Source of the DNA: a virus
Lineage: Duplodnaviria > Heunggongvirae > Uroviricota > Caudoviricetes
DNA: 10,237 nucleotides
IMG/VR virus record: IMGVR_UViG_2778261151_000009
Location: 1-10,237 of that record
Reading direction: 5' to 3' (one strand)
Shown: positions 804-1,113 of the stretch, one piece after another
Position numbering within the stretch: position 1 is the stretch's first letter
How the letters are laid out: each line of letters opens with the position of its first letter
The notes under the pieces: generated by a model
Told to the model about the DNA's origin: nothing
The model's input: the letters and a program-made list of their open reading frames with translations, nothing else
The model's database searches: none
Position numbers and translations under genes: made by a program

Positions 804-878
804 TGGAGCGGGCAGCGGGAATCGAACCCGCATCATCAGCTTGGAAGGCTGAGGTAATAGCCATTATACGATGCCCGC
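804..878 (-). tRNA. tRNA-Gly (anticodon UCC)
   Basis: Reverse complement GCGGGCATCGTATAATGGCTATTACCTCAGCCTTCCAAGCTGATGATGCGGGTTCGATTCCCGCTGCCCGCTCCA folds as a cloverleaf: 7-bp acceptor stem, anticodon loop CUUCCAA, GTTCGATTC T-loop, encoded CCA. From memory it closely resembles enterobacterial tRNA-Gly2. Confidence 0.85.
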
Positions 879-881
879 ATA

Positions 882-957
882 TGGTGCCGACTACCGGAAT
901 CGAACTGGTGACCTACTGATTACAAGTCAGTTGCTCTACCTACTGAGCCAAGTCGGC
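882..957 (-). tRNA. tRNA-Thr (anticodon UGU)
   Basis: Reverse complement GCCGACTTGGCTCAGTAGGTAGAGCAACTGACTTGTAATCAGTAGGTCACCAGTTCGATTCCGGTAGTCGGCACCA; cloverleaf with anticodon loop CUUGUAA and encoded CCA. Confidence 0.85.
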
Positions 958-959
958 AC

Positions 960-1036
960 TGGACCGCCACCGGGGACTCGAACCTCGCACACTCAACTTA
1001 AAGGGTTGACGCTCTTTCCTGATGAGCTAGTGGCGG
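960..1036 (-). tRNA. tRNA-like gene, Lys-type anticodon UUU but atypical anticodon loop (C at position 33)
   Basis: Reverse complement CCGCCACTAGCTCATCAGGAAAGAGCGTCAACCCTTTAAGTTGAGTGTGCGAGGTTCGAGTCCCCGGTGGCGGTCCA. Perfect 7-bp acceptor stem, 4-bp D stem, 5-bp anticodon stem (TCAAC/GTTGA), loop CCTTTAA, T-loop TTCGAGT, encoded CCA. Isotype uncertain. Confidence 0.55.
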
Positions 1037-1040
1037 TTGG

Positions 1041-1113
1041 TGGCCCTTGCTGGATTTGAACCAGCGACCTGGCGATTATGAGTCGCTCGCTCTCACCACT
1101 GAGCTAAAGGGCC
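1041..1113 (-). tRNA. tRNA with CAU anticodon; resembles tRNA-Ile2 (lysidine type) more than elongator tRNA-Met
   Basis: Reverse complement GGCCCTTTAGCTCAGTGGTGAGAGCGAGCGACTCATAATCGCCAGGTCGCTGGTTCAAATCCAGCAAGGGCCACCA; anticodon loop CUCAUAA. From memory the body resembles E. coli ileX-type tRNA. Confidence 0.75.

Follow-up and report, generated by a model that had tools for sequence, protein, structure and literature searches.

What do transfer RNA (tRNA) genes in the late region of a prophage do, and when are they expressed? The question is raised by a stretch of DNA from a virus of the class Caudoviricetes (IMG/VR record IMGVR_UViG_2778261151_000009, positions 1 to 10,237), here called the window, that is, the whole stretch of 10,237 nucleotides that was analysed. 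In it, four tRNA genes lie side by side at 804-1113, upstream of the lysis genes. An earlier note, made from the letters of this DNA alone, had taken them for a codon-supplementation set that serves AT-rich late genes and is expressed only after Q-dependent readthrough. The reading at which we arrive, and which we consider probable, if only by a little, is that of a compact mobile tRNA operon of the lambdoid E. coli prophage late region, the main effect of which would be an extra gene dosage of three of its tRNAs. The operon is preceded by a conserved promoter of its own, and its second tRNA, bearing a UUU anticodon, asks for a separate explanation.

The tRNA cluster and its members

In the window, ARAGORN called four tRNA genes and no others, each of them on the minus strand, and the Rfam tRNA model (gathering score 29) matched each of them with E-values from 1e-14 to 6e-7, which confirms the cluster as real. 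In the order of transcription, from right to left, these are tRNA-Ile2 with a CAU anticodon (1038-1113, 72.5 bits; labelled Met/CAU by ARAGORN and corresponding to the phage ileZ), a non-canonical, “Lys-like” tRNA with a UUU anticodon that represents an argN allele (960-1036, 44.4 bits), tRNA-Thr(UGU) (882-957, 72.5 bits), and tRNA-Gly(UCC) (804-878, 64.9 bits). The earlier note had listed them in coordinate order, which is the reverse of transcription; it was right about the compactness of the cluster, the gaps being 1, 2, and 3 nt rather than 1-4 nt, and about the anticodons, all four of which, as called by ARAGORN, read A-ending codons. The CCA end is encoded by each of the four genes.

The position of the cluster had also been described correctly. 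Along the direction of transcription, the gene for the antiterminator Q (2001..1312), a PR′-like promoter, a tR′-like terminator (1244..1215), the tRNAs (1113..804), and the holin gene (511..296) followed by that of lysozyme succeed one another in an order corresponding to the position of a lambdoid late-region tRNA cassette. The cassette tRNAs are phage genes of the late region and not host genes flanking the prophage.

The assignment of the CAU tRNA to the Ile2 type was borne out, as it is identical to ileZ of the Shiga toxin (Stx) phage 2851 (76/76), contains the pairs C4:G69 and C5:G68 in its acceptor stem (GGCCCUU/AAGGGCC), and bears the label tRNA-Ile in the NCBI annotation. It matches the K-12 ileX at 68 of 76 positions, with both pairs kept. 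These pairs mark an Ile2 tRNA for lysidine modification; C34 is expected to be converted to lysidine, with ensuing charging by isoleucine and reading of AUA.

The two distal tRNAs closely resemble host genes. tRNA-Gly is identical to the host glyT (75/75), and tRNA-Thr differs from the host thrU only by A9G (75/76); G9 is a minority allele found in 4 of 55 aligned cassette copies, the remaining copies matching thrU at this position. The earlier note had considered that the tRNAs might be identical copies of host chromosomal genes at the same locus. The identity holds for Gly and, except for A9G, for Thr, but the locus differs: the host genes stay in the thrU-tyrU-glyT-thrT operon, where they are separated by about 210 nt, as compared to 3 nt in the cassette, which lacks tyrU and thrT and has unrelated spacers and promoter. 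In the host, the Ile2, Thr(UGU), and Gly(UCC) tRNAs are of low abundance, and thrU, glyT, and ileX were each a single gene where examined in K-12; a second Ile2 gene, ileY, exists.

Origin and structure of the UUU tRNA

The UUU tRNA aligns with argN of Stx phages, a tRNA-Arg(UCG), and not with the host lysT. Its anticodon loop reads CCUUUAA vs. CUUCGAA in argN, so that three changes give the UUU anticodon together with A37 and A38; CCGCCAC/GUGGCGG forms the acceptor stem (C1-G72), and U73 serves as the discriminator base. Among the features of bacterial tRNA-Lys(UUU), U34, U35, U36, and A37 are present, whereas U33, A73, and sequence similarity to tRNA-Lys are absent. Position 33 is occupied by C instead of the near-universal U33, and this C33 was found in 79 of 79 sampled UUU-type copies in IMG/VR; the T stem carries an A51.C63 mismatch. 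By its alignment, the UUU tRNA is an argN allele with a switched anticodon and is not an Arg tRNA.

The structure of the molecule is largely preserved. Its acceptor, D, and anticodon stems are fully Watson-Crick paired, better than in the phage 2851 argN, and the nucleotides of the tertiary core (U8, A14, G18G19, T54-C56, A58) are intact. A comparison of the UUU and UCG alleles showed that the cloverleaf is kept, with 95% of pair cells being standard pairs and with two compensatory double changes (7:66, C-G/U-A; 30:40, A-U/G-C), values never reached in slid controls. In the phage Gly copies, one acceptor-stem pair is C-G in 51 copies, U-A in three, and U-G in one, thus forming a compensatory series. 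The replacement of C-G by U-A in Gly, along with the two double changes that separate the UUU from the UCG alleles, argues for selection acting on the structure. The minimum-energy fold of the UUU tRNA is not a cloverleaf; since the same is true for ileZ, energy folding is uninformative in this case. As to other alleles, the phage 2851 argN (locus L005, 1632-1708) has a G3:U70 wobble, U7:G66, and A51.C63, whereas other argN alleles have G3:C70; G3:U70 is the classical alanine identity element.

Relatives of the UUU tRNA in 50,697 phage records comprised only argN-type genes of lambdoid coliphages and of three Yersinia phages, and among species-representative genomes the UUU allele was seen only in E. 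coli and Shigella flexneri, a sampling of one genome per species that says little about its spread. In many of these phage records this tRNA has been left unannotated.

A conserved promoter in front of the cassette

A consensus scan detected a sigma-70 promoter of the cassette's own on the minus strand at 1123..1151, comprising the −35 element TTGCAA (1151..1146), a 17 nt spacer, and the −10 element TATTAT (1128..1123), with a GC-rich CCTGCGCCC between the −10 and the 5′ end of Ile2. In 55 aligned four-tRNA loci, no variation was seen in the TTG of the −35 or anywhere in the −10, while 98 of the 107 neighbouring positions vary. The same holds for a broader set: all 53 distinct upstream sequences, taken from both cassette types described below, bear the −35 TTG and TATTAT at the retained spacing, the −35 reading TTGCA in most of them and TTGAT in one diverged lineage. 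The promoter is thus kept even in lineages where all other upstream sequence has diverged.

A homologous cassette provides a mapped transcription start. For the Sp5 prophage in lysogenic enterohaemorrhagic E. coli, the published account reports a primary tRNA start, identified by differential RNA sequencing, between tR′ and the tRNAs (PMC7547250). The Sp5 sequence from tR′ to ileZ holds the same element in the form TTGCAG-17-TATTAT, and from its position we infer that the mapped start belongs to the conserved promoter element. The claim that the cassette is expressed only after Q-dependent readthrough is contradicted both by the −35/−10 pair conserved before Ile2 in all lineages and by this start in Sp5. 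Probably, the expression does not depend on Q alone; transcripts that continue from PR′ once Q has acted would supplement those from the cassette's own promoter.

The cassette family and its modules

To collect related loci, IMG/VR was searched with a D-arm pattern common to the UUU and UCG alleles, which retrieved more than 119 loci. Two architectures were found at the same place downstream of Q in 123 IMG/VR loci: Ile2-UUU-Thr-Gly (about 78) and Ile2-Arg(UCG)-Arg(UCU) (about 44). Two further arrangements are informative. PPompW phages carry Ile2-UUU-Arg(UCU), with the UUU tRNA in the argN slot and argO kept, and the Stx phage phi467 carries Thr-Gly alone, downstream of stx, with the 3-nt spacer and the downstream sequence the same as in the window. 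The PPompW and phi467 arrangements show the four-tRNA cluster to be a composite of two modules. As judged from sequence comparison, module A consists of the sigma-70 promoter, ileZ, and the argN-derived tRNA, and module B of the Thr(UGU)-Gly(UCC) pair copied from the host thrU and glyT, together with a structured spacer. In the PPompW copy of the UUU tRNA (locus L131, 1187-1262), the D stem has lost 1 nt and G3 pairs with U70; ISEc20 is inserted just downstream.

In the 55 aligned loci, the flanks are hypervariable, with polymorphism at 98 of 107 positions on one side and at 142 of 154 on the other. Within each tRNA only 4-7 sites vary, most of them as singletons, and the homology breaks off precisely where the CCA of Gly ends. 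Of 5426 complete E. coli genomes, 601 (~11%) contain the cassette in full. An intact copy is retained by the degraded prophage of E. coli FDAARGOS_944, which bears insertion sequences and frameshifts. Hundreds of RefSeq genomes and several phage records already carry an annotation of the cluster; no paper describing the four-tRNA cassette was found within our limited access to the literature.

The earlier note had compared the cluster with ileZ-argN-argO of Stx phages, and this likeness turned out to be a true homology, given that ileZ is identical, that the second tRNA derives from argN, and that the upstream promoter is shared. The cassette of Sp5/VT2-Sakai and 2851, which we take to be carried by phage 933W as well, shares with ours the position after Q, PR′, and tR′, the compact spacing, and the encoded CCA. 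It differs in having a UCG anticodon in the second tRNA in place of UUU with C33, and argO(UCU) in place of Thr(UGU)-Gly(UCC); moreover, in our window the cassette is followed not by stx but by the structured spacer and then the lysis genes. On these grounds, the four-tRNA cassette appears as an allelic (sister) variant of ileZ-argN-argO, and so belongs to a known class without being the same cassette.

Codon usage in carrier prophages

To evaluate codon supply, we compared the late genes of two carriers with 40 core genes of K-12, ranking 59 codons. The FDAARGOS_944 prophage (L001), 99.5% identical to the window over 1-6967, served as a proxy for its late genes, and the phage vB_EcoS-689R5 as a second one. 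The results showed that three of the four served codons are enriched. The synonymous fraction was 0.15 (L001) and 0.11 (vB_EcoS-689R5) for ATA against 0.05 in the host (ranks 3 and 5), 0.22 and 0.20 for ACA against 0.10 (ranks 6 and 8), and 0.21 and 0.19 for GGA against 0.09 (ranks 5 and 6), that is, a 2-3-fold excess over the host core genes (Fisher p from 2e-3 to 5e-8 in the two carriers). The expected enrichment thus holds for ATA, ACA, and GGA and fails for AAA, with 0.70 and 0.68 lying below the 0.75 of the host (ranks 39 and 36). Nor are the late genes AT-rich, as had been supposed: their GC content at third codon positions (GC3) is 0.53-0.54 vs. 0.57 in the host, and several A-ending codons (GTA, CAA, GAA, TTA, CTA) are depleted. 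The pattern is one of rare codons, not of A-ending codons in AT-rich genes.

Several observations weigh against codon supply as a full account of the cassette. Codon supply cannot explain the UUU tRNA, because AAA is not enriched in the late genes of the carriers and a single host cluster already provides no fewer than five lys tRNA genes. AGA and AGG (6-7-fold) and CGG (3-fold) are enriched above the served codons, yet have no tRNA here. The enrichment is not specific for late genes, since early genes equal or exceed them for ATA and ACA (GGA varies), and the two major capsid genes hold as few as 0 and 1 ATA and 1 and 4 ACA codons. Furthermore, in the late regions that follow 24 non-redundant cassettes of the UUU type and 17 of the UCG type, the cassette type did not track the codon usage of the linked genes: ATA, GGA, AAA, and CGA were alike in both groups, and ACA was even lower downstream of the cassettes that carry Thr (0.16 vs. 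0.21). Only AGA/AGG leaned in the expected way, toward the Arg-carrying type. The idea of a codon-supplementation set therefore survives for three of the four tRNAs, with the UUU tRNA, the unserved AGA/AGG, and the equally enriched early genes standing apart from it. It is reasonable to regard codon supply as a generic benefit of Ile2, Thr, and Gly, the cassette not being tuned to its phage.

In this respect, the cassette may be compared with the tRNA set of phage T4, which includes Ile(CAU-type), Thr(UGU), and Gly(UCC) and likewise reads A-ending codons that the host uses rarely and the phage more often. The codon-compensation model of Bailly-Bechet et al. (2007), as cited in PMC7946995, belongs to the same line of thought. 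Unlike in T4, the phage here is temperate, its GC3 is near that of the host, two of the tRNAs are host copies (Gly exact, Thr apart from A9G), and the UUU member does not fit.

Neighbouring genes and other features of the window

All the elements around the cassette are on the minus strand. The product of the gene at 1312..2001 matches PF06323 (Phage_antiter_Q, E 6e-91) and is labelled Q in homologous prophages. Directly after the end of this gene, the consensus scan found a promoter at 1295..1323 (−35 TTGCAA, 1323..1318; 17 nt spacer; −10 TATATT, 1300..1295; 9/12 matches), which would represent PR′. A tR′-like intrinsic terminator at 1215..1244 (stem 1244..1221, then a U-run) consists of the hairpin AAAACCCGCCCACAAGCGGGUUUU followed by UUGUG; the 88-nt region that holds it has a folding z of −3.3, and it closes a promoter-proximal RNA of ~70 nt. 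In Stx phages, the equivalent terminated RNA is the Hfq-binding small RNA (sRNA) StxS (PMC7547250). The RNA between PR′ and tR′ in our window (1220-1292) gave weak, sub-threshold Rfam matches (E 0.03-0.04) to isrJ and isrK, the sRNAs of Salmonella prophages.

Downstream of the cassette, tRNA-Gly is separated from the holin gene by a 290-nt spacer, which includes a structured part at 620..802 with three long hairpins (802..747, 743..673, 672..620). The 249-nt stretch 555-803 that contains them has a minimum free energy of −76 kcal/mol (z = −4.7), equalled by no shuffle; the structured spacer gave no family match in Rfam. It accompanies Thr-Gly in most four-tRNA loci and in phi467, with a counterpart in locus L130 (1060-1350). 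This spacer could act as a terminator or barrier that keeps promoter-driven tRNA transcripts out of the lysis genes, or it could be an sRNA. Just upstream of the holin ribosome-binding site, a weak terminator-like element at 571..594 (CCGC-UUUU-GCGG, then UUUUUUCUUUUC), scoring below the threshold of the consensus scan, is another candidate stop for such transcripts ahead of the lysis genes. The first late protein gene encodes a holin of the P21 S type (296..511; PF04971, E 1e-35), and it is followed by the 5′ part of a lysozyme gene (1..296; PF00959, E 7e-17), which continues past the window edge.

Beyond the region identical to the FDAARGOS_944 prophage at 99.5%, the rest of the window (6968-10237, immunity and replication) is 85-96% identical to it or has no match, and among complete E. 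coli genomes none matches the window over its full length, the best one reaching 83% coverage at 95.8% identity. This pattern of divergence is typical lambdoid mosaicism. Rfam also revealed a full-length sok antitoxin RNA at 3995-4170 on the minus strand (118.9 bits); in L001, a hokD type I toxin gene is annotated at 17302-17457, and neither is assumed to correspond to the other. On the plus strand, an above-threshold match to the Hfq-binding RNA isrK (9627-9703, 67.7 bits) lies next to another, also above threshold, to the C4 antisense RNA of P1/P7-type immunity (9728-9815, 76.3 bits), which suggests an antisense-controlled module of the antirepressor type near the right end of the window.

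Discussion

In this work, we analysed a four-tRNA cassette of lambdoid prophages, for which we propose the following mode of action. Two routes of transcription are probable: in the lysogen the cassette would be read from its own promoter, and in lytic growth from the Q-antiterminated PR′. RNase P would then cleave the precursor, followed by trimming at the 1-3 nt spacers, the CCA ends being encoded already, and the added dosage of Ile2, Thr(UGU), and Gly(UCC) would serve AUA, ACA, and GGA, the codons that are 2-3 times commoner in the prophage than in the host core genes.

Other explanations of the cassette as a whole deserve consideration. A strictly late, Q-dependent set supplying A-ending codons to AT-rich late genes, as the earlier note proposed, accords with the position downstream of PR′/tR′ and upstream of the lysis genes, with the four anticodons, and with the enrichment of three of the corresponding codons in late genes. 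This version appears improbable in view of the conserved promoter and the start mapped in the lysogen for the homologous Sp5 cassette (PMC7547250), as well as of the codon data, namely the GC3 close to that of the host, the depletion of other A-ending codons, the unenriched AAA, and the early genes being equally enriched. Alternatively, constitutive expression might mainly help the host to translate acquired genes rich in rare codons, that is, act as lysogenic conversion. This is compatible with the dosage reading, and the cassette's own promoter, the ATA, ACA, and GGA content of early and accessory prophage genes, which equals that of the late ones, and the high prevalence in E. coli, including the intact copy in the degraded L001 prophage, all speak for it; nonetheless, persistence in degraded prophages may merely reflect recent origin, and we consider lysogenic conversion unlikely to be the main role. 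The match of Gly and Thr to host genes might even suggest host chromosomal tRNAs at a prophage attachment site, a reading that we reject almost completely: the tRNAs are internal to the prophage, with Q on one side and the holin gene on the other, the attachment site in the carrier genome is at tRNA-Ser/mtfA, ~15 kb off, the host copies remain in the thrU-tyrU-glyT-thrT operon, and the cassette is found in sequenced phage genome records.

For the UUU tRNA, two explanations compete. It may be a degenerating, non-functional argN derivative that persists only by its position within 310 bp, between the selected ileZ and Thr-Gly, in a recently spread cassette. The lowest score among the four tRNAs (44 vs. 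65-72 bits), C33 instead of U33, the A51.C63 mismatch, the non-cloverleaf minimum-energy fold, the D-stem deletion in the PPompW copy, and the omission of this tRNA from several GenBank annotations all point in this direction, and its low polymorphism could be due to hitch-hiking. On the other hand, perfectly paired acceptor, D, and anticodon stems, two compensatory double changes relative to the UCG alleles, an intact tertiary core, and three loop changes that yield a clean UUU anticodon with A37 and A38 speak against a relic, and ileZ too lacks a cloverleaf when folded by energy alone. We therefore hold the relic explanation to be possible but doubtful.

A counter-defence role is, in our estimation, a little less likely still. 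Here the UUU tRNA would be a Lys tRNA left uncut by anticodon nucleases, such as the PARIS effector AriB from P4 satellites, PrrC, and possibly P2 Old. Recognition by the lysyl-tRNA synthetase is dominated by the anticodon, and we infer from this that the UUU tRNA might be charged with lysine. C33, which is fixed across the 79 sampled copies, adjoins the PrrC cleavage position. The cleavage of tRNA-Lys by AriB is abolished by U39A and impaired by A41C and U16C, and the resistant tRNA-Lys of phage T5 has A39, C41, and C16; P2 Old, another Toprim/ATPase system, blocks lambda and may act on tRNA (PMC12409363; PMC11464382). The UUU tRNA reads U36AAGUU41 and has C16, so that with G39, U40, U41, and C16 vs. 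U39, C40, A41, and U16 in the host tRNA-Lys it lacks, by its sequence, every mapped AriB determinant. A body unrelated to the host tRNA-Lys, the cloverleaf preserved through compensatory changes, and a Lys tRNA not accounted for by codon supply are likewise consistent with this role. Against it, the phage Thr tRNA does not differ from the host thrU in its D-loop or its anticodon arm, and AriB should accordingly cut it alike; the charging with lysine is putative, with U73 in place of the usual A73; C33 and A51.C63 may lower function; the PPompW copy has its D-stem deletion; the PARIS literature examined yielded no connection of this system to lambdoid phages; and the match to the AriB targets is a post hoc observation. 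The likeness to the T5 tRNA-Lys(UUU) that neutralises PARIS (the UUU anticodon, C16, a base other than U at 39, no C40/A41 cleavage site) holds in principle only, as the tRNA described here has the body of an Arg tRNA, C33, and U73, belongs to a temperate phage, and its resistance and charging are predictions. It is accordingly with low expectation that we put forward the wider version, in which lambdoid phages would have turned argN into a UUU tRNA invisible to tRNA-Lys-cleaving nucleases, that is, a T5-like counter-defence that arose in prophages by anticodon switching and is driven by a constitutive promoter. The weight remaining beyond counter-defence and relic goes to an additional tRNA that works but is unremarkable and whose identity is uncertain.

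A separate observation concerns the carrier phage vB_EcoS-689R5, in which the tail assembly chaperone gene ends with ...GTT AAA AAA AAG TAG (30213-30233); the A-AAA-AAG slippery site, read by tRNA-Lys(UUU), directly precedes the downstream chaperone open reading frame. That an extra atypical UUU tRNA, or the phage Gly and Lys tRNAs together, might affect the tail-chaperone frameshift is pure speculation based on one site in one carrier phage.

As a rule, the tRNAs of lambdoid prophages are set aside as aids to reading the rare codons of late genes or toxins. The cassette described here is modular, has a conserved promoter of its own, and occurs in ~11% of complete E. coli genomes, and three of its members fit codon supply only generically, as the enrichment is prophage-wide and independent of the cassette carried. 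The points that merit experiment are the argN-derived UUU tRNA with C33 and the conserved promoter. If the UUU tRNA is a relic, the finding is an ordinary one. If it is a functional Lys tRNA, it would provide a natural example of tRNA identity switching, and if it also escapes nucleases such as AriB, common prophages, and not only large virulent phages, would possess a tRNA-based counter-defence, which, being driven by a constitutive promoter, might protect the lysogen as well.

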